This document shows, in pieces, positions 3,201 through 32,091 of a stretch of 39,617 nucleotides of DNA. The position numbers were made by a program, and so were the translations under genes. This stretch comes from Clostridia bacterium (lineage in GTDB: Bacteria; Bacillota; Clostridia; Oscillospirales; CAG-272). The notes under the pieces are model-generated. The model saw nothing but the letters and a program-made list of their open reading frames with translations. It had not been told where the DNA came from and did no database searches. Where the stretch lies: assembly GCA_024404665.1 (NCBI GenBank), contig JAKSPQ010000001.1:1-39617 (forward strand), given 5' to 3'. Position 1 is the stretch's first letter. Every line of letters starts with the position of its first letter.

Positions 3201-3426
3201 TGCCGACGAATTCGGTGGTGAGAGGCTCCATATATACCTTATCGGCGATGGTGGTGTCAGTCATGATGGTGGCGGGATTGGAATTGCAGAGAATAACCTC
3301 ATAGCCCTCCTCGCGCAGAGCGAGGCAGGCCTGCGTGCCGGCATAGTCGAACTCTGCCGCCTGGCCGATTACTATCGGACCCGAGCCTATGACAAGGACT
3401 CTCTTTATATCCGTTCTCTTAGGCAT
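247..3426 (-). CDS. carB: Carbamoyl-phosphate synthase large subunit
   Basis: 1059 aa. Two duplicated ATP-grasp halves each open with the hallmark motif ([24 protein letters not shown] and [24 protein letters not shown]). A C-terminal MGS-like domain is present. The start overlaps the carA stop. Confidence 0.97.
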
Positions 3427-4520
3427 TGGTTTTTCTCCTTTCTGAATCCATCGGTTAATTTAAGAAATTTGTCGAAAAGATAGCTGCTGTCCTGGGGACC
3501 GGGAGCGCTTTCTGGGTGATACTGAACGGAGAACACTCTTTTTTCCGCATTCTCCAGTCCTTCAACCGTGTTGTCCAGAAGATTCATGTGGCTGACTATG
3601 AGGCCCGTGCCTTCAAGGCTTTCGGGATCAACAGCATAGGAGTGATTCTGGGATGTGATCTCAATTTTGCCGGTCTCAAGATTTTTTACCGGATGGTTTC
3701 CGCCTCTGTGGCCGAATTTCAGCTTGTATGTGTGAGCACCGGAGGCCAGCGCAATAATCTGATGTCCCAGGCAGATACCGAATACGGGCAGCCTTCCGAG
3801 CAGCGTTTTTACGGTTGCTACGGTTTCGGTGCAGCTCTCCGGGTCACCGGGACCGTTCGAGATGAACAGTCCGTCGGGATCGCAGGACATGATTTTTTCA
3901 GGTGACGCGTTCCACGGCACGACTGTTACTGTGCAATCGCGTTTTATGAATTCTCTTACTATATTCTTCTTCATTCCGCAATCGATGGCGACTATTCTTC
4001 TGCGTCCGCTGCCTGCGGTATAGCTCTTCGGCGTGCTTACAGTAGCGACGGCATCGGTTTTATATTCCGCCTCCGCGATTTTGTTAAGCGCTTCGGGGAC
4101 TGTGGTTCCGGCATCGCAGAGTATTGCTTTGCAGCTTCCGTTGTCTCTTATATGTCTTCCGAGCTTTCTTGTATCTATACCGCTGAGTCCCGTGATGTCA
4201 TATCTTTTCATAACCTCGGAGAGGGTTTCGGCGCATCTGAAGTTCGAGGGCTCATCGCAGTACTCTTTGCATATGAGAGCAGATACGGAGGGACGGTCGG
4301 TCTCGTAGTCATCGTCGCAGATTCCGTAATTGCCGATGAGGGGGTAGGTCATAACGACCGCCTGATATGTATATGAGGGGTCTGATATTATTTCCTGATA
4401 GCCCACCATCGAGGTATTGAAGACAATTTCGACGCATTTTTCGGTGTCGGCGCCAAAGGAGCTTCCTATATATTCGGAGCCGTCCTCAAGAACCAGCTTT
4501 ATTTTTTTGTTCTGTTCCAT
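3405..4520 (-). CDS. carA: Carbamoyl-phosphate synthase small (glutaminase) subunit
   Basis: 371 aa. It carries the class I amidotransferase triad context (VFGICLGHQ and VQYHPES). A GAGG SD lies 8 nt upstream. It overlaps carB by 22 nt. Confidence 0.95.
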
Positions 4521-6024: not shown

Positions 6025-7608
6025 TCAGACTCCGGAGGCTCCGTAGTTCGACAGCACTCTTGCGGAGGGATCGTTGACGTTGCAGCCCTCCCACTCCCTG
6101 TTGGGCATCCAGAAGTCTGCAACCATCTCGGCCTGTCCCGGATAATACTTTTCAAAGATTTCGCGGTACAGGAGCGATTCCTTTGTAAACGGTGTCGAGA
6201 ATGTATATTTTCTGCGTTTTTCCTCGTATTCTTCTTCAGTATAGCAACTCTCCGCATATTCCTTTAGGTCATCCACCATGGAGTGACCCACGGCATCCGA
6301 GAAGGCGGCCTTCTGTCTCCAGAGAATGGATTCGGGGAGAAGCCTGTCGTCCTCAAAGGCGTGGCGGAGGAGGTATTTACCCATTCCGTATGTGTTGAGC
6401 TTCTTTTCGGGATCGACTGACATTACATATTCGACAAAATCAAGATCTCCGAACGGAACGCGTGCCTCAAGAGAGTTGGAGGAAATGCATCTGTCGGCTC
6501 TGAGTACGTCGTACATATGAAGCTCTCTTATGCGCTTCTGCGCTTCCTTCTGGAAAGCATCGGCGGAAGGGGCAAAGTCTGTATATTTGTATCCGAAGAG
6601 CTCATCGGAGATTTCGCCGGTGAGAAGCACCCGGATATCGGTGTTTTCGTGAATCCATTTGCAGAGCAGATACATACCCATGCTCGCGCGGATTGTCGTG
6701 ATGTCATAGGTCCCGAGAATTCGGATGACCTCCTCAAGAGAAGAGAGCACCTGCTCCTTGGTCATGTATACCTCGGTGTGATCGCTGCCGATGAAATCGG
6801 CAACCTGCTTTGCGTATTTGAGGTCTATAGCGTCCTTATCCATACCGATGGCAAAGGTCTTGATCGGCGCGGAGGATTTCCTTGCAGCGATGGCGCATAC
6901 AAGAGAGGAATCCAGTCCTCCGGAGAGAAGGAAGCCGACTTTTGCGTCCGCAACCAGACGCTTGTCAACGCCGGCTGTGAGCTTTTCGTTGATTTTTTTG
7001 CAGACGGTTTCAAGATCGTCATGTGAATAAACCGGAGCATCCTCTATTTTGCGATAGCAGACGAAGCTGCCGTCTATGTAGTAGTGTCCGGGAGGGAAGG
7101 GCATGATTTTGTCGCAGATTCCGGTGAGGTTTTTGGGCTCGCTGGCAAAGACGACGGTTCCGGCGGCATCGTAGCCGTAGTACAGGGGACGGATTCCGAT
7201 GGGATCGCGGGCAGCGATGTATTTTCCGGACTGTCCGTCGTAGATGATGAGGGCGTATTCGGCATCGAGCATTGCGAACATGTCCGTGCCGTATTCGCGG
7301 TAGAGGGGAAGAAGGATTTCGCAGTCGGAATCCGATTTGAAGGTGTAGCCTTTTGCTTCAAGCGAATCTCTGAGGGCCTTAAAGCCGTAGATTTCGCCGT
7401 TGCAGACAACGTAGCTTCCGTCTGCCTCGAAGGGCTGCATGCCTTCCGGAGTCAGGCCCATGATGGCAAGGCGGTGGAAGCCGAGGACGCCGTCTCCGGT
7501 TTCGATAATCCTGCAGTCATCGGGACCGCGGGATATGGTTTGGTCAAAGCCTTCTTTAAACAGCGGAAAGTCGATGCATTTCCCGCAATATCCGATGATG
7601 GAACACAT
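6025..7608 (-). CDS. asnB: Asparagine synthase (glutamine-hydrolysing)
   Basis: 527 aa. It has the N-terminal MCSIIGY nucleophile (Cys2) and the PP-loop LLSGGLDSSLV. An AAAGGAG SD lies upstream. Confidence 0.93.
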   Translation of the reverse strand: MCSIIGYCGKCIDFPLFKEGFDQTISRGPDDCRIIETGDGVLGFHRLAIMGLTPEGMQPFEADGSYVVCNGEIYGFKALRDSLEAKGYTFKSDSDCEILLPLYREYGTDMFAMLDAEYALIIYDGQSGKYIAARDPIGIRPLYYGYDAAGTVVFASEPKNLTGICDKIMPFPPGHYYIDGSFVCYRKIEDAPVYSHDDLETVCKKINEKLTAGVDKRLVADAKVGFLLSGGLDSSLVCAIAARKSSAPIKTFAIGMDKDAIDLKYAKQVADFIGSDHTEVYMTKEQVLSSLEEVIRILGTYDITTIRASMGMYLLCKWIHENTDIRVLLTGEISDELFGYKYTDFAPSADAFQKEAQKRIRELHMYDVLRADRCISSNSLEARVPFGDLDFVEYVMSVDPEKKLNTYGMGKYLLRHAFEDDRLLPESILWRQKAAFSDAVGHSMVDDLKEYAESCYTEEEYEEKRRKYTFSTPFTKESLLYREIFEKYYPGQAEMVADFWMPNREWEGCNVNDPSARVLSNYGASGV

Positions 7609-7622
7609 TTTTTATCTCCTTT

Positions 7623-7657
7623 GCTCCTTTTTTGAAAAGGAGCGTTTTTCTCTTTTT
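7623..7657 (+). terminator. Terminator-shaped hairpin plus T-tract, oriented antisense to asnB, just beyond the asnB start codon
   Basis: The hairpin is gctcctttt-ttg-aaaaggagc (7623-7643), followed by gtttttctcttttt. On the asnB (minus) strand the same hairpin is preceded by an A-tract and followed directly by the SD, so there it is not a terminator. Confidence 0.45.
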
Positions 7658-7668
7658 ACATAGGATTG

Positions 7669-7698
7669 CCGTCTCGACGGTTTTCACCGTCGAGACGG
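7669..7698. other. Perfect 12-bp inverted repeat / hairpin in the asnB upstream region
   Basis: Sequence is ccgtctcgacgg-ttttca-ccgtcgagacgg. There is no convincing U-tract on the minus strand. Function is unknown. Confidence 0.6.
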
Positions 7699-7716
7699 TA
7701 TTATTCGGTTAAATTT

Positions 7717-7985
7717 GATGACGCTCCGTCACCTATGCCTGAGTGTCGGCGATTATAATAGATGCGACCGAAGGCGGTTTGCGTTAGCAAATCGATGACG
7801 CTCCGTCACCTATGCCTGAGTGTCGACGATTATAATAGATGCGACCGAAGGCGGTTTGCGTTAGCAAATCGATGACGTTCCGTCACCTATGCCTGAGTGT
7901 CGGCGATTATAATAGATGCGACCGAAGGCGGTTTGCGTTAGCAAATCGATGACGCTCCGTCATCGAAGCCTGAGTGTCGACGATT
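7717..7985. repeat. Tandem direct repeat, 77-bp unit x about 3.5
   Basis: Units start at 7717, 7794, 7871 and 7948 (the last is partial). The unit is gatgacgctccgtcacctatgcctgagtgtcggcgattataatagatgcgaccgaaggcggtttgcgttagcaaatc. Full units differ by single substitutions (gtcggc/gtcgac, gacgctcc/gacgttcc). Each unit contains three short hairpins: gatgacg-ctc-cgtcac, accg-aagg-cggt and ggtttgc-gtta-gcaaatc. Confidence 0.92.
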
Positions 7986-8010
7986 TCAAAAGTCATGTTG
8001 ACTTTTGAAA
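7984..8010 (-). terminator. Hairpin abutting the amt-PII stop codon (weak terminator, no U-tract)
   Basis: Sequence is tttcaaaagtca-tgt-tgacttttgaaa, a perfect 12-bp AT-rich stem. On the minus strand it is followed by tcgtcgac, so read-through into the repeats and asnB is plausible. Confidence 0.4.
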
Positions 8011-9768
8011 TCATTCTACATCCTGCAGCGCTTCGTAGCCTTCCTCACCGGTGCGGACCTTTACGACGTTTTCAACATCGTAAACAAAGATCTTGCCGTC
8101 GCCGATGTGACCGGTGTAGAGAACTCTCTTGGCGGTCTCTATGACGCTGCGGACGGGAACCTTGCTGACAACGATGTCAACCTGAACCTTAGGCAGCAGG
8201 CTTGCTTCGATTGCAACTCCGCGGTAATACTCGGGCTTGCCCTTCTGAACACCGCAGCCGAGAACGTGCGACACCGTCATGCCGGTGATGCCGATCTCCA
8301 TCATAGCGCTCTTAAGCGTTTCAAGCTTGGCTTCCTTGCATATGATTTCGACCTTGGTGAATTTGGGAGATCCGTCGTCGAAGGTGGGAACCTTCTTTAC
8401 GGGAACCGCCTCGGCAACCGGTGTATCGCCGGAAACCGCAACAGCGGGCTCTTCAAAGCCGTAATCGATGCTTTCGACAGCGGGAACAAAGTCTGCATAC
8501 GCACTGGGCAGACCGTGCTCGGTGCTGTCAAGGCCCTTGATTTCTTCTTCGGCGGAAACGCGGAGACCGACAGTCTTCTTGATAAGCATGAATACGAGGA
8601 ACATCATGATTCCGGTCCATGCAAGGATGCATACGATACCGAGAACCTGAACACCGAGTAGTCTGAAATCACCGGTGTAGAGGAGGCCCTTAAGACCGGC
8701 GGGAGCATTCGGGTTGGAGAGCAGACCTACGGCGATTGTGCCCCAGACACCGTTGGCAAAGTGAACGGCAACAGCACCGACGGGATCGTCGATGTGGAGC
8801 TTGAGGTCGAGCAGCTCAACAACAACTACTACAAGGATACCGGAAACAAGACCGATAACGGCAGCGCCGATGGCATCGACGGAATCGCAGCCCGCGGTTA
8901 CGCCTACGAGTCCGGCGAGGGAGCCGTTCAGACACATGGAAACATCGGGCTTGCCGTTTTTAACCCATGTGTAAATCATGGTGGCAACGGTTGCCACGGA
9001 GGGAGCGATGGTGGTTGTTACAAAGATTGAGGCGAGAGAGGGGTTATCCCAGGCGGCGGCACCGTTGAAGCCGTACCAGCCGAACCAGAGGATGAAGCAG
9101 CCGAGAGCTCCGAGAGTTACGGAGTGACCGGGGATCGCGTTTACCTTAGTGACCTTGCCGGTCTTGTCCTTGACGTACTTGCCGAGACGGGGACCCAGCA
9201 TCATCGCGCCGATCAGAGCGGTGATTCCGCCGACGGAGTGAATGGCGGCCGAGCCTGCGAAATCGTGGAAGCCCATCTGTGCGAGCCAGCCCTGGGAGTT
9301 CCATACCCAGCCGGCCTCGATGGGATATACAAAGAGTGAAATTGCTGCGGAATAAATGCAGTAGGAAAGGAACTTGGTTCTTTCCGCCATTGCACCGGAA
9401 ACGATTGTTGCCGCGGTGGCGCAGAACACGAGGTTAAATACAAAGGAGGTTGCCTGACCGCCGGTTATGAATGAACCGAAATCGGTGAAAAGCTGCATAT
9501 TGGGAACACCGATGACGCCGAAGAGATAATTCTCGGACATCATAAGGCTGAAGCCTATTACCATGAAAAGAACGCAGCCGATGCAGAAGTCCATAAGGTT
9601 CTTCATGATAATGTTTCCGGCGTTCTTGGCTCTTGTAAAGCCTGTCTCAACCATTGCGAAGCCGGCCTGCATAAAGAATATGAGGGCGGTTCCTATCAGG
9701 ATCCAGATGCCGTACGCTTCTTTCGATACGGCATCACCGATTAATTTGGTGATTTCTTCTATTCCCAT
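8011..9768 (-). CDS. amt: Ammonium transporter (Amt) fused to a C-terminal PII (GlnK/GlnB-like) signal-transduction domain
   Basis: 585 aa. The N-terminal ~410 aa form a polytopic Amt (FFMQAGFAMVETG, multiple TM segments). An acidic/Pro-rich linker follows. The last ~115 aa are a PII fold with a T-loop-like GCGVQKGKPEYYRG and DGKIFVYDV. The start lies only 25 nt downstream of the glnN stop. Confidence 0.92.
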   Translation of the reverse strand: MGIEEITKLIGDAVSKEAYGIWILIGTALIFFMQAGFAMVETGFTRAKNAGNIIMKNLMDFCIGCVLFMVIGFSLMMSENYLFGVIGVPNMQLFTDFGSFITGGQATSFVFNLVFCATAATIVSGAMAERTKFLSYCIYSAAISLFVYPIEAGWVWNSQGWLAQMGFHDFAGSAAIHSVGGITALIGAMMLGPRLGKYVKDKTGKVTKVNAIPGHSVTLGALGCFILWFGWYGFNGAAAWDNPSLASIFVTTTIAPSVATVATMIYTWVKNGKPDVSMCLNGSLAGLVGVTAGCDSVDAIGAAVIGLVSGILVVVVVELLDLKLHIDDPVGAVAVHFANGVWGTIAVGLLSNPNAPAGLKGLLYTGDFRLLGVQVLGIVCILAWTGIMMFLVFMLIKKTVGLRVSAEEEIKGLDSTEHGLPSAYADFVPAVESIDYGFEEPAVAVSGDTPVAEAVPVKKVPTFDDGSPKFTKVEIICKEAKLETLKSAMMEIGITGMTVSHVLGCGVQKGKPEYYRGVAIEASLLPKVQVDIVVSKVPVRSVIETAKRVLYTGHIGDGKIFVYDVENVVKVRTGEEGYEALQDVE

Positions 9769-9793: not shown

Positions 9794-11890
9794 TTATTTT
9801 ACGCTAAAGAGCATATCAGCGTAGCTCGGATAAGGCCAGTATGCCTTGGCGGTCTTGGTCTCGGCGGAATCGACAAGAGCTCTTAAGGCATCCATGGCGG
9901 GGATGAGCTCGTCGCGGATGGCGTAGGACTGTTCGATAACGTCGTCTATGGCCTTGACATCGGCAATCTTGGCTTCCAGGGAAGCGGTTGAAACAGCGAT
10001 GGCATCGGTGAGCTCGGAGAGGGTCTTCATTGCGGAGGACTCATAAGCGCAGGCGACGGAGCCGCATGCGGCCTTCTTGGCGATGATGGAATCGGCAAGC
10101 TTGTGAGTGTACTCGGCAACAGCGGGAGTGATGGCGGTGCCGGCCATATCGACCATGGTGTTGGCTTCTATGATAACGGTCTTGCAGTAGTTCTCAAGCA
10201 TGATGTCCACACGGGAATCGAGCTCGGTCTGAGTGAATACTCCGAGGCCCTTGAGCATATCGGCGTTCTTCTTGTCGAGCAGGTGAGGCATGCAGTCGGG
10301 AGTGGTGCGGTAGTTGAGAAGTCCGCGCTTTTCGGTGGCTTCTCCGATCCAGGAAGCATCGTAGCCGTTTCCGTTGAAGAGGATGTGCTTGTGATCCTTG
10401 ATGGTCTTTCTGATGATGCCGTGAAGAGCGGCGGTGAAATCGTCGGCGACCTCAAGCTCATCGGCGAAGCCCTTGAGAACCTCTGCTACGGCGCTGTTGA
10501 GCATGATGTTCGCGCAGGAAATGCTGTTGGAGGAGCCGAGCATTCTGAACTCGAACTTGTTGCCGGTGAAGGCGAAGGGAGAGGTTCTGTTTCTGTCGGT
10601 GGTGTCGCGGTTGAACTGAGGAAGAACGTCTACACCGAGCTTCATCTTGGTGCGGACGGTTCCGGAATAGGGAGTGTCGGTTTCGATTGCCTCAAGGATG
10701 GCGGTGAGCTCATCGCCGAGGAAGATGGAAACGACAGCCGGAGGAGCCTCGTTTGCGCCCAGACGGTGGTCGTTGCCGGCGGTGGCAACGGAGATGCGGA
10801 GCAGATCCTGATATTCGTCTACGGCCTTGATAACGGCGCAGAGGAATGTAAGGAACTGAACGTTCTCGTGAGGAGTATCACCGGGGGAGAGGAGGTTGAT
10901 GCCTGTATCGGTAGCCATGGACCAGTTGTTGTGCTTGCCGCTTCCGTTGACGCCGGCAAACGGTTTTTCATGGAGCAGGCAGACGAGACCGTGCTTGGAG
11001 GCGATCTTCTGCATCATTTCCATCATCAGCTGGTTGTGATCGGTTGCGATGTTGGTGGTTGTGTAGATGGGAGCCAGCTCATGCTGAGCGGGAGCAACCT
11101 CGTTATGCTCTGTCTTGGCGAGAATGCCGAGCTTCCAGAGCTCTTCGTTGAGGTCTTCCATGAACTCGGCTACCTTCGGCTTGATTACGCCGAAGTAATG
11201 GTCGTCCATCTCCTGGCCCTTCGGAGGCTTGCAGCCGAAAAGGGTTCTGCCTGTGAAGCGGATGTCGGGGCGCTTGTCGTACATTTCCTTAGTAATAAGG
11301 AAGTATTCCTGCTCGGGACCGACGGATGTGCGTACGCACTTTACGTCGCTGTTGCCGAAGAGCTTTAAGATTCTCAGAGCCTGCTTGTTGAGAGCGGCCA
11401 TCGAACGGAGAAGAGGAGTCTTTTTATCCAGGGCCTCGCCGCCGTAGGAGCAGAAGGCTGTGGGGATGCAAAGGGTCTTACCCTTGACGAATGCATAGGA
11501 AGTGGGGTCCCAGGCTGTGTAGCCTCTGGCCTCAAAGGTGGCGCGGATACCGCCGGAGGGGAAGGAGGAGGCATCGGGCTCGCCCTTGATCAGCTCCTTG
11601 CCGGAGAATTCCATGATTACTCCGCCGTCGGGAGAGGGAGAGATGAAGCTGTCGTGCTTCTCGGCAGTAACACCGGTAAGCGGCTGGAACCAGTGAGTGA
11701 AGTGTGTGGCGCCCTTGGCGATGGCCCACTCCTTCATGGCTTCCGCAACCGCGTTGGCGACGCTGCTGTCGAGCTCTGTGCCTTCATCAATTGTTTTTTT
11801 GAGCGATGCGTAAACCTTTGCGGGAAGATTTGCTTTCATGACTCTGTCATCAAAGACGTTGCTTCCGAACATTTCTTTTACTGTTTCCAT
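9794..11890 (-). CDS. glnN: Glutamine synthetase type III
   Basis: 698 aa, the size typical of GS-III. It has a GS catalytic core ([47 protein letters not shown]). An AAAGGAG SD lies upstream. Confidence 0.93.
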
Positions 11891-11940
11891 AAGTTTTATC
11901 TCCTTTGGATAAAATTAATTATTTTCTGTGAATGGTGGGC

Positions 11941-12018
11941 GAATAACAAAACAAAGAGGCGCCTGTCGGAGCAGAGTTCCGAAAGACGCCATTGCCTTGT
12001 TTTGTTATTCGTTTTTTT
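11941..12018 (+). terminator. Long hairpin plus T-tract in the glnN 5' leader, terminator-shaped only in the antisense (+) orientation
   Basis: The outer stem pairs gaataacaaaacaa (11941-11954) with ttgttttgttattc (11997-12010), with inner ggcg/cgcc and tcgga/tccga pairs. It is followed by gttttttt. On the glnN strand it is preceded by an A-run and followed by gcccacc. Confidence 0.45.
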
Positions 12019-12025
12019 GGAGGTT

Positions 12026-12065
12026 AAAAAAGAGAAAAACGCCCTTTAGCTTGCACTAAAAGACG
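12026..12065 (-). terminator. Leader (attenuator) intrinsic terminator of the glnN operon
   Basis: On the minus strand the RNA reads CGUCUUUUAG-UGCAAG-CUAAAGGGCG (10 bp including 2 G-U), followed by UUUUUCUCUUUUUU. It lies about 15-55 nt downstream of the predicted start site and about 135 nt before the glnN ATG. Confidence 0.7.
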
Positions 12066-12076
12066 CCCTTGCCTTT
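12059..12076 (-). promoter_or_regulatory. Candidate antiterminator hairpin with AAGGGC hexaloop (possible ANTAR site)
   Basis: On the minus strand the RNA reads AAAGGC[AAGGGC]GUCUUU. The 3' arm (12059-12064) and last loop base are the 5' arm of the leader terminator, so the two structures exclude each other. The loop has A at position 1 and G at position 4. Confidence 0.45.
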
Positions 12077-23963: not shown

Positions 23964-24008
23964 CGAAAAAAGGGATAGCGAAAAAGTGGGTGATTTTTTT
24001 GCTATCCC
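23964..24008 (-). terminator. Terminator closing the AT-rich RiPP-like operon (also 3' of prfC)
   Basis: The stem pairs gggatagc (23972-23979) with gctatccc (24001-24008). On the minus strand the hairpin is followed by TTTTTTCG. Confidence 0.6.
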
Positions 24009-24016
24009 TATTACTA

Positions 24017-25078
24017 TTAGTTGAAAAAAGAAGCAATGGCTTCTCTGACGCAGCCTAAAACACAATACTCATTGTTGATTATTCTTATCATACGAGAAAA
24101 CGCAGCTTGCTTGACTTTGTCATCTATAGAAAAATGTGACTTTAAAAACAGATTATGTACAATTTCTTGGTCGTCTAATACCGTGGCAAATTGATCTACC
24201 AAGTTTTGGGTGATTATGTTTTCGGATTTTAAAAACATCAATCTGTAATACATTATTCTTTTCAAATCAAGAAAGAACCTGCTATATCTTTCGTCAAGAA
24301 AAGCATTTTCCGGAGAAACAATATATTCGCAAAAGGCCCGTTCACAATCGATTCCGAACCTTTTTTCATCTTGTGTAACAGAAACAGACTCAAGATAATT
24401 ATCCAAAGAGGTATACAGTTCATTAAGATTTAACTCAAAATGGTATTCGGGATTTATCTTAAAAGCTTCGAGTTCGATTTTCTCATAGGATATTGTCTGT
24501 TTCTTTTCGAGGCTGAATCTGCGTCCGATCACGGCTGAAACAAAGCATTCGTATGGAATTGGATGAGAGAGATATTGTTTGCCACGTGTGTATCCTATGG
24601 CAATAAATGCAGCAGTTGCTTCATCATACCCATACAACAAAATCGAATGTCTGTGGTGTTTAACTAAATAACTGTCTGTGTTGGGAATGTGATATTCATC
24701 CACAAACCCCACCACATACCAACCATTATCGAGATGACTAATTGTGAAGTCTATTATTTCTGAAGATGATACACCGGAAATTCGATCGTATTCAAAGCGG
24801 TTTACTAATGTTGCACCGCATTTTTGAAAATAACGACCATCAGGCATATAGTGACAAAACTTCTTTTTGGCATTTGGATCATAGTAACAATTGATATATT
24901 GCCCGAATATCCATGGCGATTTGCATTGTAATACGCCAAGTTCAAAATTTCTTAATTGATAGGTTTGAATCCAAGGGTTCTCTTCAAGATATAGTATTAC
25001 GCTCATTTGATTAATGATGTATGGAACGGAAAGAATGGTAGTTTTTTCAAACAACAATGGCTTTTTTGAGACGAACAA
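24017..25078 (-). CDS. Hypothetical protein; possible papain-fold C39-like / BtrH-like cysteine hydrolase or acyltransferase
   Basis: 353 aa, the last gene of the AT-rich operon. Candidate Cys...His elements are LQCKSPW / INCYY and HSILLYGYDE, the latter resembling the H-x-hydrophobic-x-G-Y-D motif of C39/BtrH_N-type proteins. The start is uncertain: TTG at 25078 overlaps the upstream gene by 32 nt, and the alternative is ATG at 25006. Confidence 0.6.
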   Translation of the reverse strand: MFVSKKPLLFEKTTILSVPYIINQMSVILYLEENPWIQTYQLRNFELGVLQCKSPWIFGQYINCYYDPNAKKKFCHYMPDGRYFQKCGATLVNRFEYDRISGVSSSEIIDFTISHLDNGWYVVGFVDEYHIPNTDSYLVKHHRHSILLYGYDEATAAFIAIGYTRGKQYLSHPIPYECFVSAVIGRRFSLEKKQTISYEKIELEAFKINPEYHFELNLNELYTSLDNYLESVSVTQDEKRFGIDCERAFCEYIVSPENAFLDERYSRFFLDLKRIMYYRLMFLKSENIITQNLVDQFATVLDDQEIVHNLFLKSHFSIDDKVKQAAFSRMIRIINNEYCVLGCVREAIASFFN

Positions 25079-26468
25079 GAAAATCCGTGTTTTTTCCGGT
25101 GTCCTGTGTCATGATTTCTTTTATTTTGTGGCGCTGTTTAATATAAGACACCATTTTTTCTTCGACTTGGCTACCAATTGCTCTGCATGATACTGCAAAC
25201 ATGATCAGCTTATCTTCTTCGATTCCAATAGTGCCGATGAGTCCGAATTCTCCGTATGCGTTTTTAAGGAAAACCGAATAGAGAAACGGAACCTTTTTTA
25301 AATCTTTTACAGTGAAACGGCCGCCATTAGTTTTTTTATTTGTCCTGAATGATAACTCTGATATTCTATTATACTCAGTTGGGGTTGCTGGGTGAATATC
25401 TATTTCTTCATTTTCATTTGCTAAATAAGATCCGGTGACCTGTGGGAAATTGCGATAATTGCCCGCTCGGGTTTGAGGCAAGATAGAATTGGCGCCGGAT
25501 AGTTTGAAACAACTTAAATCGGAAAAAAAAGATTTGGAATTGAATAAAACGGAAGTGATATCCGGAAGCAAAGCTTTAACTTCATTAATTTCGGTTTCGG
25601 AATCGTCGACAAAAACTATACTGTTCTGTGAAATACCGAGCGTTTTTGCAATAGTAATAAGTCCCTTTGATTTTGAGGAGTTGTCACCCCATATATAAGA
25701 TATGTGTTCTCTTTTTATTAGCATGCCGCTGTGGCTATCCAACACATCTTGTACATCTTCTCTTGAGTTCTTAGTACATAAGCATAAAATCACTCCGCAA
25801 TAAAATAGATGAAGCACAAAACGTTGAAAGTCTTCATATGCTCTTGAAACATTTATACCTTCTAAACCATCCTCGCTTAATATGCCTTCCCATAATACTC
25901 CGTCACAATCCAAAGCAAGGCATTTGGGCGTTTTGAAGTGATAAACTGAATAGACGATATTTATTTCTTTGACAAACGCTTTGACAATCTTCTCGCTGTA
26001 TGGGGCCGACCATCGATATTTGTTTTTGAAATCATAAGCTATTGTAATACCGGCGTCTGCTATTATTCGTTTAGTATCGATGAGGAAATCATCGGGTGAA
26101 ATAATCGATGAAATTTGAATATTAAGCTTGTCTGCCAGGTGATTCAAAACATAAACAGATCCAAAAATGGATGTGTCATTGCAATAATAATCTTCATAAC
26201 CAAACCAAATGACAGGAATAGAAGTGAGTGATTTTATTCTTTTATATATATCACCGGTCAATGAGCATATGCCGTCCGGAGACATTGTTCGCAGAGCTTC
26301 TTCTAAATTGATCATTAATACGACGAAATCGGCATTTGAAGTTCGAATCTCATCGATGGAAGACAGTGAAAAATACCGACTGTGGCTTTTTTCTCCGAAT
26401 GTGGATTTGATACATTCACCCAAAAACGGCTCAAGGATAATATTGCTTATGAAATCAAGCTCTATCAT
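25047..26468 (-). CDS. FkbH-like HAD-superfamily IIIC protein with C-terminal GNAT-like domain
   Basis: 473 aa with HAD motifs: LALDCDGVLWEG (DxD), CTKNSREDV and VFVDDSETEINEV. The C-terminal FkbH-type tail is FGLIGTIGIEEDKLIMFAVSCRAIGSQVEEKM. It overlaps the ACP gene by 14 nt. Confidence 0.82.
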   Translation of the reverse strand: MIELDFISNIILEPFLGECIKSTFGEKSHSRYFSLSSIDEIRTSNADFVVLMINLEEALRTMSPDGICSLTGDIYKRIKSLTSIPVIWFGYEDYYCNDTSIFGSVYVLNHLADKLNIQISSIISPDDFLIDTKRIIADAGITIAYDFKNKYRWSAPYSEKIVKAFVKEINIVYSVYHFKTPKCLALDCDGVLWEGILSEDGLEGINVSRAYEDFQRFVLHLFYCGVILCLCTKNSREDVQDVLDSHSGMLIKREHISYIWGDNSSKSKGLITIAKTLGISQNSIVFVDDSETEINEVKALLPDITSVLFNSKSFFSDLSCFKLSGANSILPQTRAGNYRNFPQVTGSYLANENEEIDIHPATPTEYNRISELSFRTNKKTNGGRFTVKDLKKVPFLYSVFLKNAYGEFGLIGTIGIEEDKLIMFAVSCRAIGSQVEEKMVSYIKQRHKIKEIMTQDTGKNTDFLVRLKKAIVV

Positions 26469-26724
26469 TGTTTAACTCGCTTTTGTATATGTTGCTCAAT
26501 ACCAGGTGAATTTTATTTATGGTGTTTATCTTTGACAAAATTAACATATCAATCGGAATCTCACAATCAAACGCTTTCTCGAGCGAAACAACAATACGCA
26601 CAAAGCCGATCGAATCAATATTTAATTCTTCAAATGGCGTATCAACATCCGATACGGATATACTGTAAGCGTTAGAGCAAGAGTTGACAGTTTTTATGAT
26701 TATGTTAAGTTCCGGGTGTATCAT
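26455..26724 (-). CDS. Acyl carrier protein
   Basis: 89 aa. The phosphopantetheine-attachment context is ELNIDSIGFVRIVVSLEKAF (DS motif at a helix II start). It overlaps both neighbours. Confidence 0.78.
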   Translation of the reverse strand: MIHPELNIIIKTVNSCSNAYSISVSDVDTPFEELNIDSIGFVRIVVSLEKAFDCEIPIDMLILSKINTINKIHLVLSNIYKSELNNDRA

Positions 26725-27595
26725 TTGGAATCCCTCTGAACATTGCTTTATTGATCTCTATTTTACGGATATCTGAAGAAGTCAAGTCCTGCGCAATCAA
26801 AGAATAAATATCGGTTGAGCTGAGACGGCAGGAAATATCACAATTCCACGGTTTTCGTTCTTTGTCACAAAGCCCATAATAGTTTAAGAGCTCAGTTCCT
26901 TCTCTTGATTTGAAAGCAGAGATGTAACCATCGAGGATCTCGTCATTGAAAATTAATCCGGTGTGGAATAGAACATAGAAGGCATATGGGATGATATCAT
27001 ATTTTTGACAAGCTTCGTAAAGTTTTTGCGGAGTAAGTTTGTCGTGGTGACGAACTAATAGCTGATATACATCGTTGAACGCAGTCTTATTTATGCTTTT
27101 TCTTGTTGCGAGAAGATAAATGCTGTTCATGTCTCTGTAGATGTGCAAAGCCAATTGGATAAAGGTGTTTTCATAGGATAGCGTTTTTACATCAAATCCA
27201 AACAGATTAATTGAGACTGTATCCGCAAGAAAATCAGATACCGGGATGCGTTGTCTGTCATACTCTCCCCAGGTGACATCGAAGTTAATGTCATAAATCA
27301 AGTTTCCGGTGTGATCTGTGTAGGTGGGAAGTTGATGTGAGTACAATTCGCAAAATATCTCACGCTCTTGGGAGTAATTCTGAACGTGAAAACAATTCTT
27401 TTTCAAGGCTTCCTTCATTTTACCGATACTATCCCGGCATATAAGAATATCAAGGTCATTGTATTCTCGAATGTTGGGATCGTTATATAATATTTGGGAC
27501 AACGCCGGCCCTTTGATTATTGCATAAGGTGCAGAAAAATCATTTAATACGGGCTTGAGTTTTGTTAAATACAATTTGCTCCACAATTTATGCAT
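26705..27595 (-). CDS. Nucleotidyltransferase-family protein (NTP_transf_5-like)
   Basis: 296 aa. The N-terminal signature YAIIKGPALSQILYNDPNIREYNDLDILICRDSIGKMKEALKKNCF matches the pattern G.aL....Y.....R...DiDlLv of the uncharacterised nucleotidyltransferase family. Confidence 0.75.
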   Translation of the reverse strand: MHKLWSKLYLTKLKPVLNDFSAPYAIIKGPALSQILYNDPNIREYNDLDILICRDSIGKMKEALKKNCFHVQNYSQEREIFCELYSHQLPTYTDHTGNLIYDINFDVTWGEYDRQRIPVSDFLADTVSINLFGFDVKTLSYENTFIQLALHIYRDMNSIYLLATRKSINKTAFNDVYQLLVRHHDKLTPQKLYEACQKYDIIPYAFYVLFHTGLIFNDEILDGYISAFKSREGTELLNYYGLCDKERKPWNCDISCRLSSTDIYSLIAQDLTSSDIRKIEINKAMFRGIPNDTPGT

Positions 27596-27597
27596 GA

Positions 27598-28449
27598 TTA
27601 GTACCCAAAAGAAAAAGATTCAAGCGATTGTTTCAGCAATGGAATTGAGTTTGGAATTGTCATTTTAAAAGCGTGAATGTGCGAGAGTGCATTAACAGCA
27701 TTGTTGATACATTCAAAAGGAAGGTATTCGTTTCCAATGATATTGTTCGCCAAAAGGATTTGTTTCTTGATTTTTGAACCGATCTCTTTTGTTTCGATTT
27801 TCTCTGAATCATGTCTATCGAGATAAAAAATGCGCCCCAAAGTGGTGCTGCTTTTGTTGGAAGCCATAAGGTCAATCGCAGAATCAGGGAAAAAGTATGC
27901 TTTCCCGGAAATGTTATATCCCTTGGTTTGTGAAAGTTCGCGATGGTCGAGAATCGATTTATCAATCCGAATGAATGAACCTGAGGAGCAACAAAGGTGC
28001 GGGCAGGCTAGAGAGACGCATATGGTATCATCTCCGACAAACGGGTAATAGGAAGACATCAAGTAGGTGAGAGTTGATTTTCCCACCTTTTTATTACCGG
28101 AAAAGATACATATTTTATCGTTTATCAATACTGCCGACCCATGAATCAAAACGCATTCTTTTGAGATTGCCAAAAAAACGCCGAATGGAATATTGAAAAC
28201 AGATGATACTACTTTGTTAATGTCATCGGAAAAAACCGTGATGTTTTTTTGGAGGGGATCTATCAAATACACCAAATTAAAATGAAAATCAATGATGATT
28301 TTATCATTCTTAAGCGATTCATTGTATTCAGAGAAGGAATGAACGCAGATGTCTAAATCAACCTCGGATGACGGATTGTATTCTGTAAGAATGTCAATTT
28401 GAAAATTTGTACGGGTTATGATTCCGTAAATCATATAGTATTTATTCAT
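27598..28449 (-). CDS. HPr-kinase-like serine kinase (HprK C-terminal domain homologue)
   Basis: The motif IHGSAVLINDKICIFSGNKKVGKSTLTYLMSSYYPFVGDDTICV matches the HprK catalytic/P-loop region. The ATG at 28449 overlaps the ABC stop by 8 nt. An upstream in-frame start at 28482 is possible. Confidence 0.78.
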   Translation of the reverse strand: MNKYYMIYGIITRTNFQIDILTEYNPSSEVDLDICVHSFSEYNESLKNDKIIIDFHFNLVYLIDPLQKNITVFSDDINKVVSSVFNIPFGVFLAISKECVLIHGSAVLINDKICIFSGNKKVGKSTLTYLMSSYYPFVGDDTICVSLACPHLCCSSGSFIRIDKSILDHRELSQTKGYNISGKAYFFPDSAIDLMASNKSSTTLGRIFYLDRHDSEKIETKEIGSKIKKQILLANNIIGNEYLPFECINNAVNALSHIHAFKMTIPNSIPLLKQSLESFSFGY

Positions 28450-30217
28450 AGCAAGAACTCTGAGCAGTATACATTTTGGCATATAGACCGTTCATGCTCA
28501 TCAAATCATCGTGATTTCCTTCCTCGGTTATACATCCGTTCTCAATGACCAGTATGCGGTCTGCTTTTCGGCAGAATACTAATCTGTGAGATACAATGAT
28601 CATTGAGCGGTTTTGTGTTGTGCTTAGAATATTTTCAATCAAATCTCTTTCCATAATTGGATCCAATGAATTTGACGGCTCATCAAGAACCAATATCTTT
28701 GATGACCTGAGAAGTGCTCTTGCCAGGAAAAGGCGTTGCTCTTCTCCTCCGGATAAGACAATACCTTTTTTATCAAATGATCTTTTCAACTGTACGTCAT
28801 AGCCCTTGGGATTATCCGCAAACTTCTCAGTCATTTGGACTTTTTCCAAAGCTTTAGTGATTTCCGTGTCCGAATATGAATGGCCAAAGGTCAGGTTGGT
28901 TCTTAGTGTATCGGGATAGAGTATGCCATCTTGAAACACTACAGCCATCTGCCTCCTTAAAGACACGAGGTCATATGATTTGATGTCTCGGCCGTCGATC
29001 AGTATTTCTCCTTCTTGTGGATCATACAGGCGGAATAAAAGTTTGGTAATTGTTGTTTTTCCGGCACCATTTTCTCCTACGAGACACACATGTTCTTGGG
29101 GGCGAATAACAAAAGACAAATTATTTAAGGTCGGATGGTCACAGTTGGGATATGTGAAAGAGACGTTTTTGAATTCAATAATATAGCTGTCTCTATCGGG
29201 AAGGGGAATTTGTGAATCGGTGGAGAGCTCAACAGTGCATTCCTCATTTAATATTGCTCTCAAATCGTCGATGAAGCGTGATTGTTGCCCGAGAGACGGA
29301 ACATTGGCTACCAACGTGTTTAACTGTTGTGTCAATGAAGTGACTGCATTGACTATTGACATAAATGATCCCAAAGTGATGATTCCGCCTATGATATCTT
29401 TTGAGACCAACAGCATTACAGCCAAAGAGGCTAACGAAGCAACCAATGCCTCTAAATATAGCCATGAGTTGGTTTTGTGACAGTATTTGAGATTTTGTTT
29501 GATATTATTCTCTTGTTCTTTTGAGTAATAATCGATATAAAAGTTTCCCGAGTCATACATTCTCAACTCTTTTAGCGTTACCGAAGACCAAAACAGTGCG
29601 GCTAAATAATTATTGGTATGTCTTTTTGCGCGGGTCAAAACAACACTTTTCTCGTATTCCAATTTGTTGTTTTTTGATAGAACAACGTAAGATATTAAGA
29701 CGCTGATACAGGCTATTAGGAAAAATAAAAAATTATGTGTCAGAATTTGAATTAGTGACACGATTGAAACAATAGTAATAAAGCTGGAGAACAAAGAAAT
29801 ATAAGTCCCCGCCAGTCGTTGTATCGCACCGTCCGCTTGCTTGAGTGCTCTCGTTTTTTTGTCGTAAAAATCAGGGTCATCAAAGCATCTGAAATCCAAA
29901 ACAAGGGCTTTTACCATCATTTCTGTTGTCATACGAAGCGATAAAGACGAAAAGGCTTTTTCGGTGTAATAATTCGTGAAAATGGTAAAGATCTCACAAA
30001 TCAGCAGAATGAGGACGTATGTCAATACAACTGGCAATACTTGAGTGATTGTTGAAGCAGAAGCTACAGCATCAAGTATTTTACCAATAAAATAAATGCT
30101 TGACACATATCTCAATGCCTGGAACAGTCCGCAAAGGAAAAAGAACAGAAAAACAAAAGGGTTGTATTTCCACAAAAAAACGGACATAAAGGAAATGTTT
30201 TTAATAGTATGTCTCAT
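28442..30217 (-). CDS. ABC exporter, fused permease + ATPase (no N-terminal C39 peptidase domain)
   Basis: 591 aa. About six N-terminal TM segments are followed by Walker A (LVGENGAGKTT), signature (LSGGEEQR) and Walker B (ILVLDEPSNSLD). An ATGA overlap joins it to the radical SAM gene. Confidence 0.9.
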   Translation of the reverse strand: MRHTIKNISFMSVFLWKYNPFVFLFFFLCGLFQALRYVSSIYFIGKILDAVASASTITQVLPVVLTYVLILLICEIFTIFTNYYTEKAFSSLSLRMTTEMMVKALVLDFRCFDDPDFYDKKTRALKQADGAIQRLAGTYISLFSSFITIVSIVSLIQILTHNFLFFLIACISVLISYVVLSKNNKLEYEKSVVLTRAKRHTNNYLAALFWSSVTLKELRMYDSGNFYIDYYSKEQENNIKQNLKYCHKTNSWLYLEALVASLASLAVMLLVSKDIIGGIITLGSFMSIVNAVTSLTQQLNTLVANVPSLGQQSRFIDDLRAILNEECTVELSTDSQIPLPDRDSYIIEFKNVSFTYPNCDHPTLNNLSFVIRPQEHVCLVGENGAGKTTITKLLFRLYDPQEGEILIDGRDIKSYDLVSLRRQMAVVFQDGILYPDTLRTNLTFGHSYSDTEITKALEKVQMTEKFADNPKGYDVQLKRSFDKKGIVLSGGEEQRLFLARALLRSSKILVLDEPSNSLDPIMERDLIENILSTTQNRSMIIVSHRLVFCRKADRILVIENGCITEEGNHDDLMSMNGLYAKMYTAQSSCYE

Positions 30218-31572
30218 TCCTCAGCCTCCTCTTCATCATCTTCTTCAGTATCGTCACGGTTCTTAAGAAGCGATGCGAAATACATTGTCATCATTTTGTC
30301 AACAAGTGGATGAAAGGTGTTGCAACTTGCAATTCCTTCCTTTAACCATTGGGCCGGGCAAGTACCTCCATAGCAGACAGGGAGATCTTTACAGCTAATG
30401 CATCCCCGGGCTTTAATTGCGGATTCCGGAGCTGAGAGCCATTGTCTGTGTTTTTTTTCATCAATATCAAATATACCGTTGTTAACGAAACCAATTTTAT
30501 TGATTGCATCATCATCCAGGTATTCAGTACATTTTCTAATCGTTCCATCAACATCGATAACCAGACAATGCTTGTTTCTTGCATAACATAATGGTGCTGC
30601 GGGATTTAAATTTGAGTAGTATTCCTCAATTCCGATATTGTTTTCGGCAAAGACATCGAAAATATAATCCTGTGCCAGTATTTCAGCTTTGTTTGAAACA
30701 AAATCATACTTGAGCTTTGTGTTTGATGGCGGGTTGATCTTAGCACAGAAAAAATGAAATCTAGGGTCGTCAAAATCAGCCTTCAATCCCAATAGGATTT
30801 CGGGTAAACGTTCTAGCATATCCGTATGATAATTGATCCGAATTCTGATATCTATATTCTGAAGATCGGTTTCTTTGATTGACATTAGATTGGAGTGTAT
30901 TCTGTCCCAGGTTCCGTCTCCGTTTTTTAAAACACGAAGCTCATCATGGAAATGCTTGTTTCCGTCAAGAGTGATCTGATATGTTGTCAACTTCAATTTG
31001 GCCAATTCTTTGGCTTTTTGTGATGTCAAAAGATACCCGTTGGTTGTCATTGACATCCAAAAGGCAATTGATGTATTGTCGCAGTATTCTTTCAGTGCTC
31101 TTGCTATTAATACTATTTGATCGAAACATAACATGGGCTCCCCTCCAAACCACTCAATATGAAGTGCCTTGATTTGGGGATGGATTTGCAAATAATGAAT
31201 GGTTCCGCGAATTATATTCTTGATTAAATCGCTATCGTAGAACTCGGTCCGTTTTTCTTCATAACAATAAGTGCATCTGAAATTGCATTCTCTTGTCGGA
31301 AGCAAAATAAGACGGAGGGTCTCTCCGTCATTTAATAGTTTATTAACGAAATTAATCGCATCGACAGTTTCATCGCGGTTTTCCGGAACTAAAACGCCGG
31401 CTTTTACCAGTCGATTATCAGGGGCCTCAAGATACCCGTTAGCCGAACGTTTTAATTCTGAAAGCAGTTCATCATCAAATATTCTTGCTTTAAAACCGCG
31501 TAGCGAATTGTATATGCACAACTCACCGTCGATGTTATAAAATCTGATATATTTGGATAATTTGTACTTCAT
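30214..31572 (-). CDS. Radical SAM / SPASM-domain peptide maturase
   Basis: 452 aa. The rSAM cluster is LLPTRECNFRCTYCYEE (CxxxCxxC), about 95 aa from the N terminus, leaving room for an RRE/PqqD-like leader-binding domain. C-terminal auxiliary-cluster Cys motifs are CLVIDVDGTIRKC and CISCKDLPVCYGGTC...C. A polyacidic tail (DDTEEDDEEEAEE) ends the protein. The start lies 3 nt after the precursor stop. Confidence 0.9.
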   Translation of the reverse strand: MKYKLSKYIRFYNIDGELCIYNSLRGFKARIFDDELLSELKRSANGYLEAPDNRLVKAGVLVPENRDETVDAINFVNKLLNDGETLRLILLPTRECNFRCTYCYEEKRTEFYDSDLIKNIIRGTIHYLQIHPQIKALHIEWFGGEPMLCFDQIVLIARALKEYCDNTSIAFWMSMTTNGYLLTSQKAKELAKLKLTTYQITLDGNKHFHDELRVLKNGDGTWDRIHSNLMSIKETDLQNIDIRIRINYHTDMLERLPEILLGLKADFDDPRFHFFCAKINPPSNTKLKYDFVSNKAEILAQDYIFDVFAENNIGIEEYYSNLNPAAPLCYARNKHCLVIDVDGTIRKCTEYLDDDAINKIGFVNNGIFDIDEKKHRQWLSAPESAIKARGCISCKDLPVCYGGTCPAQWLKEGIASCNTFHPLVDKMMTMYFASLLKNRDDTEEDDEEEAEE

Positions 31573-31575
31573 ATG

Positions 31576-31749
31576 TTAAGAGGAGCATCCGCATGAAGCT
31601 GTGGTATTGGTTTGACAAGCGCTGCACCCGCATTGAACAACCGTGTTACACACACTACATCCGCATCTGGAAACAGTGTTGCATTTGCTGCATGAGGTCT
31701 GTGCTGCTTTTGAATCTAATAATTGAAACAAGTCCTCGAATATTTCCAT
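31576..31749 (-). CDS. Cys-rich RiPP precursor peptide (57 aa), not in the supplied ORF track
   Basis: My own translation of the minus strand gives MEIFEDLFQLLDSKAAQTSCSKCNTVSRCGCSVCNTVVQCGCSACQTNTTASCGCSS*. An AGAGGG SD lies 8-9 nt upstream and a consensus promoter about 35 nt upstream. The stop lies 3 nt before the rSAM ATG. It has an acidic/hydrophobic leader, 10 Cys and three CGCS repeats. Confidence 0.75.
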   Translation of the reverse strand: MEIFEDLFQLLDSKAAQTSCSKCNTVSRCGCSVCNTVVQCGCSACQTNTTASCGCSS

Positions 31750-31784
31750 AAAGAGAGCCCTCTTTCTAAGAATATTTTTATATT

Positions 31785-31813
31785 ATTATAACATAGTTCA
31801 ATTCAAAAGTCAA
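31785..31813 (-). promoter_or_regulatory. Consensus sigma-A promoter of the RiPP-like operon
   Basis: On the minus strand: TTGACT (31813-31808), a 17-nt spacer, then TATAAT (31790-31785). Confidence 0.65.
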
Positions 31814-31936
31814 TAGATTCTTTATTACTGGATTTATGTTGTTGTAGTGTTACAATTGATGCCCGAGTCCCTATTTTGCACGAAAACAACGTTTTTTGCT
31901 CAAAAATAACCTTAAAAAAGCCATTTTCAAGGCGAA

Positions 31937-31980
31937 AACAGCCGAAATCCTTCATTTTGGACATCGGCTGTTTTTGTTTT
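31937..31980 (+). terminator. Orphan terminator-like hairpin plus T-tract with no upstream plus-strand gene
   Basis: The stem pairs cagccga (31939-31945) with tcggctg (31964-31970) and has an inner tcc/gga pair. It is followed by tttttgtttt. It sits in the 390-bp non-coding gap at the right edge of the AT-rich island. Confidence 0.35.
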
Positions 31981-32091
31981 CCGGTAAACTCGGGTTATAT
32001 CAGATTTTATTGCCTTTGTCCTGCTTTTTTTTTAATAATTAACGTCAGGACTTCGGTTCCACCCCAACATTAATTTTAGAACCCTGATTAA

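Follow-up and report, generated by a model that had tools for sequence, protein, structure and literature searches.

The goadvionins, lipolanthines and selidamides are ribosomal peptides that bear an acyl unit of polyketide synthase (PKS) or fatty acid synthase (FAS) type, and in their systems the acyl chains are long and the enzymes are of the GNAT or PKS kind. AziU2 and AziU3, from azinomycin biosynthesis, form a heterodimer whose substrate is sulfated and attached to an amino-group carrier protein. The present analysis concerns a contig of 39.6 kb from a metagenome-assembled genome (MAG) of the Clostridia, called the window in its whole length, and within it the 3' end of an eight-gene minus-strand operon for a ribosomally synthesized peptide with post-translational modification (RiPP), where an acyl carrier protein (ACP), an FkbH-like loading enzyme and a third protein, encoded by the last open reading frame (ORF) of the operon, are found together. 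Compared with the goadvionin, lipolanthine and selidamide systems, the loader of the window is FkbH-like, implying a C3 hydroxy-acid unit, and the candidate transferase is a papain-like protein without the Cys; to our knowledge, such a C3 hydroxy-acid donor is of a kind not known from RiPPs. FkbH enzymes produce glyceryl-S-ACP from 1,3-bisphosphoglycerate (PMC7489565). In CtaG, BtrH and CcbD, a papain-type Cys-His-Asp triad is used to transfer acyl groups off carrier proteins (PMC7183216, PMC12865890), whereas AziU2/U3 share the CtaG-type fold but are not a transferase and act as an aziridine synthase that displaces sulfate (PMC12865890, PMC12559475); the solved members of the CtaG/CcbD/AziU fold all act on carrier-protein-bound substrates (PMC7183216, PMC12865890). 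In lasso-peptide precursors, the C-terminal Ser is phosphorylated by HPr-kinase homologues and an associated nucleotidyltransferase then puts a hexose on the phosphate (PMC8498205). No description of FkbH-like or BtrH-fold proteins in RiPP clusters was found in the literature searched, where journals were covered incompletely.

Our preferred reading, whose chance of being right we put at about even, is that the ACP, the FkbH-like enzyme and the last protein make up the carrier-protein arm of a tailoring set of five genes (for an HprK-like kinase, an NTP_transf_5 protein, an ACP, an FkbH-like enzyme and a CtaG/BtrH/AziU-fold protein) on a radical-SAM peptide cluster, by which a donor unit would be passed to the peptide. 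As far as the sequences tell, these tailoring components are present, look intact and recur together, and the module would work like an FkbH-ACP loading pair coupled to an off-loading enzyme of the BtrH/CtaG type. The three genes are the 3' end of a single low-GC unit (an island at about 24,000-32,000 with 36-38% GC, against about 50% around it), and between neighbours there is either an overlap of a few bases, as at several of the junctions, or only a very short gap, a spacing that suggests translational coupling in one operon from the precursor promoter to the terminator. The whole operon has a syntenic copy in a related locus (L001), with 69-88% protein identity and likewise next to prfC. 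More diverged copies in L004 and L005 keep the order radical SAM, ABC, HprK-like, NTP_transf_5, ACP, FkbH and last-ORF relative, their FkbH-like proteins being 39-44% identical to that of the window, and the full eight-gene architecture is thus seen again in L001, L004 and L005. Since these syntenic and diverged copies exist, the three ORFs can be regarded as real genes and not as chance ORFs. A reading of the DNA made from sequence alone (the sequence-only reading) had described the three genes as embedded in a RiPP operon, and this holds, with a precursor, a radical SAM/SPASM enzyme, an exporter, an HprK-like protein and an NTP_transf_5 protein all encoded upstream. In order of transcription, the features are:

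31785-31813, minus strand: promoter-like site (TTGACT, 17 nt, TG-TATAAT) 5' of the precursor gene, the best consensus match of the region (11 of 12 positions), assigned by consensus match only
31576-31749, minus strand: precursor peptide, 57 aa, with a Cys-rich core and the end ...CGCSS; sequence MEIFEDLFQLLDSKAAQTSCSKCNTVSRCGCSVCNTVVQCGCSACQTNTTASCGCSS
30214-31572, minus strand: radical SAM/SPASM peptide maturase (Pfam Radical_SAM, E = 8e-15)
28442-30217, minus strand: ATP-binding cassette (ABC) exporter, permease plus ATPase, without an N-terminal C39 peptidase domain
27598-28482, minus strand: HprK-like P-loop kinase candidate (weak TIGR04355 match, E = 2.7e-4)
26705-27595, minus strand: NTP_transf_5 nucleotidyltransferase-fold protein (PF14907, 76.3 bits against a cut-off of 31.2)
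26455-26724, minus strand: stand-alone ACP, 89 aa (Pfam PP-binding)
25047-26468, minus strand: FkbH-like three-domain enzyme, 473 aa (TIGR01681, TIGR01686)
24017-25006, minus strand: last ORF, a Cys-less protein of the CtaG/BtrH/AziU fold, 329 aa; the ORF extends to a TTG at 25078 (353 aa)
23971-24009, no strand assigned: hairpin (17-bp stem; consensus scan only) located where prfC and the operon converge, probably the terminator for both

The ACP matches the PP-binding family (PF00550) with 38 bits (cut-off 20.8, E = 2e-9), and its Ser38, within the (D/N)-S-I motif of NIDSIGFV, is invariant in nine orthologous or neighbouring ACPs. Its stop codon lies beyond the ATG of the FkbH-like gene, with an overlap of 14 nt. 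The window holds no phosphopantetheinyl transferase gene, and a related cluster (L141) has one of the Sfp type between the FkbH gene and the last-ORF relative. The FkbH-like protein reaches 45.3 bits against TIGR01681 (HAD-IIIC; cut-off 35.75). In an alignment of 120 homologues, its motifs DCDGVLW, KNS, DDS and SCRAIG...VEE fall on invariant or near-invariant columns: K182, C183, D187, C188, D189, N234, K266, D288, D289, R368, R375, G382, S427 and C428 are invariant, and K233 and R429, both present in the window protein, are nearly so. These results sustain what the sequence-only reading had said of this pair, namely a stand-alone ACP with a modifiable Ser that overlaps the start of the FkbH-like gene on the minus strand, and the listed motifs of the loader. 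Cys428 of the SCR motif is found in 120 of 120 homologues, and it may correspond to the catalytic Cys that carries the acyl-enzyme in OzmB. An AlphaFold2 model (mean predicted local distance difference test score, pLDDT, of 89.4) suggests three domains: about residues 1-175 form an SGNH/flavodoxin-like N-terminal domain, about 180-310 a HAD-IIIC phosphatase domain, and about 355-473 a C-terminal domain that holds the SCR Cys. Foldseek searches with this model returned BF1531 (3slr, E = 8e-22), which is the closest solved relative, MDP-1 phosphatases and SsfX3/GDSL-type structures, and the HAD domain prevailed among the full-length matches. The matches to BF1531 and MDP-1 fit the central HAD domain, and in our own reading of the model those to SsfX3 and GDSL esterases belong to the N-terminal one. 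The C-terminal α/β domain looks GNAT-like, as suggested by its strand-helix order and by an R-x-x-G motif after the strand 420-426. The ACP and the FkbH-like loader are genuine and look catalytically intact. Like the FkbH/OzmB glyceryl-ACP synthases of methoxymalonyl-ACP and tetronate pathways, the window has a HAD-IIIC domain with an intact DxD motif, an invariant Cys in a C-terminal domain peculiar to FkbH proteins and a stand-alone ACP directly upstream. Unlike them, its loader scores below the FkbH cut-off and has an extra SGNH-like N-terminal domain, as in BF1531, and PKS, FabH-like and dehydrogenase partners are absent, with RiPP neighbours instead. As a separate observation, this N-terminal domain (residues 1-175) seems to resemble SGNH/GDSL esterases and the acyltransferase SsfX3, and it has conserved residues of its own (W88, E92, N116, D131 and the stretch K148-x-K150-Y-R-W).

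The homologues of the last ORF all begin at the position of its Met25 (25006), so that the real gene is probably 24017-25006 and encodes 329 aa. Close homologues are rare (eight in 5.8 billion proteins), and a profile built from these eight retrieves 3,714 representative proteins at E ≤ 0.001, typically of 320-345 aa, a family that Pfam barely covers (8 of 55 members have a weak BtrH_N match). The protein itself, which contains the motif HSILLYGYDE, matches BtrH_N with E = 4.6e-4 and 20.9 bits, below the cut-off of 29.7, and has no match to Pfam C39. Its AlphaFold2 model (mean pLDDT 72.8, predicted template modelling score 0.69) is α/β in its N-terminal half and helical in its C-terminal half, and in Foldseek searches of the PDB it gave 12 significant matches, all of them AziU2/U3, CtaG or CcbD, at a probability of 1.00, full-length (295-374 aligned columns) and with E from 3e-7 to 1.6e-4. 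AziU2/U3 are the best structural match (E = 2.6e-7, 357 columns, 11% identity), and there is no C39 peptidase among the 12. Sequence profiles of the family returned nothing relevant from the PDB. The last protein is thus predicted to have the two-domain fold of the CtaG/CcbD/AziU type, with a papain-like N-terminal domain and a helical C-terminal one. The sequence-only reading had called it C39/BtrH_N-like; the likeness to BtrH stands at the level of the fold, and the C39 part falls away.

The catalytic residues are a different matter. Among 144 full-length members of the family, there is no column with a conserved Cys, and the tabulated columns around the expected nucleophile have at most 2% Cys (the five columns tabulated for residues 36-39 and 49-50 in 55 members, and residues 40-48 in 144). 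The start of the first helix is occupied by Tyr40 (127 of 144), Gln/His41, Ala/Asn/Gly44 and Phe/Tyr45. Comparison with canonical, Cys-containing relatives was made with a profile of three sequences, a number set by the fact that a homologue search with the canonical BtrH_N protein of locus L006 returned only itself. With a single canonical sequence, the profile comparison aligned only the C-terminal helices, and the three-sequence profile aligned the His/Asp region at 54% probability. His144 aligns with the His of the canonical relatives and is conserved in 137 of 144 members, and the triad Asp aligns with Gly162, a position that is Gly in 133 of 144. In a forced global alignment, the canonical Cys falls opposite Phe45 with low confidence, which leaves Tyr40, Asn44 or Phe45 as candidate equivalents; because the N-terminal register is uncertain even so, the claim is limited to the absence of Cys from that region, and the nucleophile is missing whichever register holds. 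Other conserved residues are Tyr121, Asn/Asp127, Glu128, Gly150, Asp152, Tyr163, Asp262, Arg264, Arg267, Glu271 and Lys313, in addition to Tyr40, His144 and Gly162. Cys64 was considered as a nucleophile (it is Cys in 82 of 144 members) and rejected, because its place is in a β-strand and about a third of the members (47 of 144) have L, I, V or F there. The papain-like triad that the sequence-only reading had proposed to look for is thus not there apart from its His, and with neither a conserved Cys nor the triad Asp the last protein would be neither a C39-type leader peptidase nor a canonical thioester transacylase of the BtrH type, both of which are unlikely in the form proposed. Having failed the Pfam threshold and lacking Cys and Asp, it belongs to the BtrH/CtaG/CcbD fold only and not to that enzyme family. 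Like the genes for the amide-forming transacylases CtaG, BtrH and CcbD, its gene stands beside those of a carrier protein and a loading enzyme (PMC12865890), and the His is conserved. It differs from them in the missing Cys nucleophile, the Gly in place of Asp and a BtrH_N score below the cut-off, and also in its acceptor, which in the known enzymes is an aminoglycoside, an amino sugar or a chain bound to a peptidyl carrier protein (PCP) and in the window is presumed to be a ribosomal peptide.

Gene neighbourhoods, covered for about 200 related loci in all, tie the last-ORF clade to carrier proteins and loaders. When 185,579 species genomes were scanned for a degenerate DNA motif, 120 blocks of 8 kb were obtained, 107 of them with a family member; after clustering of the neighbours, the latter showed ABC exporters at 30 loci, adenylation-PCP (A-PCP) didomains at 28, S8 peptidases at 21, PaaK-like ligases at 13, small ACPs at 12 and radical SAM enzymes at seven. 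The exporters, S8 peptidases and radical SAM enzymes connect the clade with peptide clusters as well. A carrier protein or loader is present in 45 of the 107 family blocks as against none of the 13 chance-match control blocks, and the loaders near the clade are of three types: A-PCP didomains, PaaK-like ligases with an ACP, and FkbH with an ACP. In one case (P0252, 2689 aa), a hybrid megasynthase with ketosynthase, condensation and adenylation domains followed by two PCPs (KS-C-A-PCP-PCP) ends in two tandem clade domains, at residues 1895-2245 and 2336-2680. These occupy the usual place of a release domain.

The same neighbourhoods bear on the idea, which we regard as improbable, that the cluster has its leader peptidase in the last ORF, as the sequence-only reading had offered as an alternative, and that this protein and the pair of ACP and FkbH-like enzyme work separately. 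Its fold does belong to a papain-like clan (PMC7183216), the operon encodes no other protease, the exporter has no C39 domain and clade members often adjoin ABC exporters (30 of 105 loci). Apart from the missing Cys and Asp and the lack of C39 matches in Pfam and among the significant Foldseek hits, a peptidase role is difficult to reconcile with the 21 loci that already have an S8 peptidase beside the family member, with a member fused after the PCP domains of a megasynthase, with the enrichment of the loci for carrier proteins and loaders, and with five precursors (described below) that share no double-glycine (GG/GA) motif before the core.

Adjacent, diverged pairs of clade paralogues are frequent (L002 at 10001-12069, L003 at 10001-12074, and L019, L042, L049, L058, L066, L116 and L122). 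They recall the AziU2/AziU3 heterodimer, and the second paralogue has a conserved LPIC(I/T)TP motif near its N-terminus. In L003, an ACP-like protein (3453-3755), an ornithine/arginine-decarboxylase-like enzyme (7449-8501) and the two paralogues stand beside radical SAM enzymes and an S8 peptidase, a set that parallels BtrI (ACP), BtrK (decarboxylase) and BtrH of butirosin.

A metagenome scan from the side of the loader kept 80 FkbH-like loci, 40 close to the window protein (mostly 35-42% identity) and 40 distant (24-31%). An ACP neighbours FkbH in 33 of the 40 close loci, where it lies upstream, and in one of the distant ones; the corresponding numbers are 25 and one for NTP_transf_5, 18 and one for ABC transporters, 12 and none for relatives of the last ORF, 10 and one for radical SAM enzymes, and four and none for HprK-like proteins, the last from a single-sequence search. 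NTP_transf_5 lies directly 5' of the ACP in 20 of 28 loci with enough DNA, and a relative of the last ORF is found no more than 2.5 kb 3' of FkbH in 8 of 22 such loci. The unit seen most regularly across loci is NTP_transf_5–ACP–FkbH, to which an HprK-like kinase, an ABC exporter and a radical SAM enzyme are often added; the NTP_transf_5 gene, the steadiest partner of the other two, had gone unremarked in the sequence-only reading. A BtrH-fold neighbour occurs in 8 of 10 sampled contexts of the FkbH subfamily of the window. At the position of the last ORF, two further loci (L154 and L156) have a canonical Cys-containing BtrH_N protein, and in L006 (8698-11572) the ACP-FkbH pair is accompanied by a canonical BtrH_N/C39_2-like protein with Cys, His and Asp, so that Cys-containing and Cys-less forms appear to be interchangeable beside the loader.

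That this FkbH subfamily is one of polysaccharide loci was considered and rejected, since its close relatives are flanked by ACP, NTP_transf_5, ABC and radical SAM genes; within this subfamily the genes do not occur mainly in polysaccharide or lipid loci, which the sequence-only reading had named as a finding that would speak against it. A wider form of the idea, in which the product made or decorated by the ACP, the FkbH-like enzyme and the BtrH-fold protein is not the peptide (it might be a small molecule or a polymer of the cell surface) and the peptide genes are only their neighbours on a mobile island, has in our judgment a poor chance of being right. It can point to L006 and L007, where the trio with the canonical Cys-His-Asp BtrH_N protein adjoins sugar-nucleotide genes and no radical SAM enzyme, to a family-9 glycosyltransferase downstream in L140, and to BF1531, which is presumably encoded in a Bacteroides polysaccharide locus. 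In the window, however, the genes are probably coupled in one operon from precursor promoter to terminator, the same gene order returns with unrelated precursors, and it is the close FkbH relatives, not the distant ones, that have NTP_transf_5, ABC and radical SAM genes on their flanks.

In NCBIfam, the radical SAM/SPASM protein matches TIGR04463, the geopeptide maturase, CefB and PapB best, each under its cut-off, and the exporter aligns to bacteriocin exporter models only from profile positions 159-161, which means that the peptidase domain is missing. Orthologues of the HprK-like protein in L129 and L128 have weak Hpr_kinase_C matches, and sequence searches of the PDB found no relatives of either the HprK-like or the NTP_transf_5 protein. 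All five precursors found beside related radical SAM enzymes end in Ser: besides that of the window, these are the L001 orthologue (...CGCAS), the L005 peptide (5438-5611; ...CPQANCCS), whose core repeats CPQxx with a Cys at every fifth residue, the L136 peptide (3271-3396; ...LQCPSS) and the L146 peptide (1996-2124; ...CVETS). Their cores are Cys-rich, and those of L005, L136 and L146 are otherwise unrelated in sequence to the window precursor. A simple filter found no precursors in L128, L129 and L130. In L002 (14963-15291), two tandem precursor genes have the ends ...VAWCSSCCSLKNGG and ...VAWCSSCCSLKNGK, which are not Ser, and despite this the cluster has HprK-like and NTP_transf_5 genes; upstream of it lie genes for AgrB, a LytTR regulator and a histidine kinase, a quorum-sensing set of the agr type.

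An NTP_transf_5 protein, a kinase homologue, of weak similarity, and a Ser-ending precursor are therefore all present, as in the paeninodin and pseudomycoidin set of lasso-peptide tailoring, in which genes for an HPr-kinase-like protein and a nucleotidyltransferase likewise accompany a Ser-ending precursor (PMC8498205). The window differs in not being a lasso cluster, as it has no genes for a lasso cyclase or leader protease and a radical SAM/SPASM maturase at its core, and in its additional ACP, FkbH-like and BtrH-fold proteins. With five out of five precursors ending in Ser, modification of a C-terminal phosphoserine, which the sequence-only reading had given only as an alternative to modification of the peptide itself, would be the more likely of the two, and these sequences are best read as pointing to a modification that depends on a carrier protein and has the phosphorylated C-terminal Ser as its target.

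It may be that NTP_transf_5 itself joins the ACP-bound unit to the phosphoserine, for example as a phosphodiester to the hydroxyl of glyceryl-ACP, and that the last protein works as AziU2/U3 do, acting on the carrier-bound intermediate by intramolecular displacement, cyclisation or release; we hold this to be unlikely on the whole, and still the strongest of the rival explanations. NTP_transf_5/ACP/FkbH is the most conserved unit (the 20 of 28 loci mentioned above), and L129 and L128 have it with no BtrH-fold protein. The closest structures, AziU2/U3, displace sulfate, for which the phosphate supplied by a kinase would be a comparable leaving group, the triad Cys and Asp are absent, and tandem paralogue pairs like the AziU2/U3 heterodimer are seen in L002, L003, L019, L042, L049, L058 and L066. 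The window, on the other hand, has one gene copy and no pair, NTP_transf_5 would have to use an ACP-bound substrate, and the one studied nucleotidyltransferase works without an ACP (PMC8498205). With AziU2/AziU3 the window protein thus shares the fold and the frequent pairing among its relatives, and it differs in its single copy and in a carrier that is a phosphopantetheine-type ACP.

Returning to the preferred reading, transfer by a carrier-protein arm, the following sequence of events can be proposed. The radical SAM/SPASM enzyme would cross-link the Cys-rich core. The HprK-like kinase would phosphorylate the C-terminal Ser and NTP_transf_5 would build on the phosphate, as the lasso-peptide precedent and the conserved terminal Ser suggest. 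From the family, the motifs and the adjacency of the genes, the FkbH-like enzyme is expected to put a small acyl unit, most likely glyceryl from 1,3-bisphosphoglycerate, on the phosphopantetheine arm of the ACP by means of the aspartates of its HAD domain and of Cys428. The last protein, to go by its fold and its neighbourhoods, would bind the loaded ACP and pass the unit to the peptide, or process it there, the likely site being at or beside the modified C-terminal Ser. Because this protein lacks the papain-type Cys and Asp, a direct reaction with no covalent enzyme intermediate would be expected, with His144, Glu128 and Tyr40 as catalytic candidates and His144 probably as general base. The leader would probably be removed by a protease encoded elsewhere.

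Several points weigh against this scheme. The last protein lacks the nucleophile used by all characterised acyl-transferring members of its fold, and its best structural match is AziU2/U3, which are not a transferase (PMC12865890, PMC12559475). The model itself is of only moderate confidence, and its pLDDT is below 50 exactly at the would-be nucleophile. Some NTP_transf_5/ACP/FkbH clusters, such as L129 and L128, have no BtrH-fold protein nearby, so the last protein would not be essential to the core module. From the side of the clade, 62 of the 107 family blocks have no carrier protein within their 8 kb, and none was found in 20 kb of L002, a contig that continues past an NTP_transf_5 gene cut at the end of the locus. 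As to the loader, its substrate is predicted from family resemblance, and its match to TIGR01686 (E = 6e-38, profile positions 2-290 of 323) scores 130.7 bits, below the curated cut-off of 146.65. Finally, no other protease is encoded in the window operon.

A further-reaching proposal is that this operon represents a new RiPP route, in which Ser phosphorylation, extension by NTP_transf_5, a glycerate unit from FkbH and ACP, and a Cys-less transfer or an AziU-like displacement follow on one another, and that its last protein stands for a general clade of carrier-dependent peptide-modifying enzymes; we consider this possible and, on balance, doubtful. Such a clade would comprise at least 3,700 representative sequences essentially outside Pfam, with A-PCP didomains, PaaK-like ligases with ACPs and FkbH with ACPs as donors. 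If true, ribosomal peptides would be joined to carrier-protein (thiotemplated) chemistry, two worlds that are rarely combined, and a function would be given to a large unannotated clade of papain-fold proteins without the catalytic Cys and Asp. The chemistry of C-terminal Ser phosphorylation in lasso peptides would also be extended to peptides that a radical SAM enzyme has cross-linked. A papain-fold partner that has lost its nucleophile poses a mechanistic puzzle, and the compactness of the eight-gene operon makes the idea directly testable.

With regard to the island, the low-GC segment (about 37% against about 52%) lies beside prfC both in the window (24000-32000) and in L001 (1-7778), and identity between the two is 96.6% for prfC, 86% for GlnA, 88% for the ABC exporter, 82% for the radical SAM enzyme and only 69-72% for the five tailoring proteins. 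The island seems either to have diverged much faster than its flanks or to have been exchanged. In L004, transposase genes (4883-5519 and 1975-2718) separate the radical SAM gene from the ABC gene and interrupt the cluster, and no precursor gene was found in that locus; the two together suggest that this copy may be decaying. Related clusters are likewise lower in GC than their surroundings. The module occurs in rumen, gut and fermentation metagenomes, mainly in anaerobic Firmicutes, and one sampled locus belongs to an Anaerolineaceae MAG.

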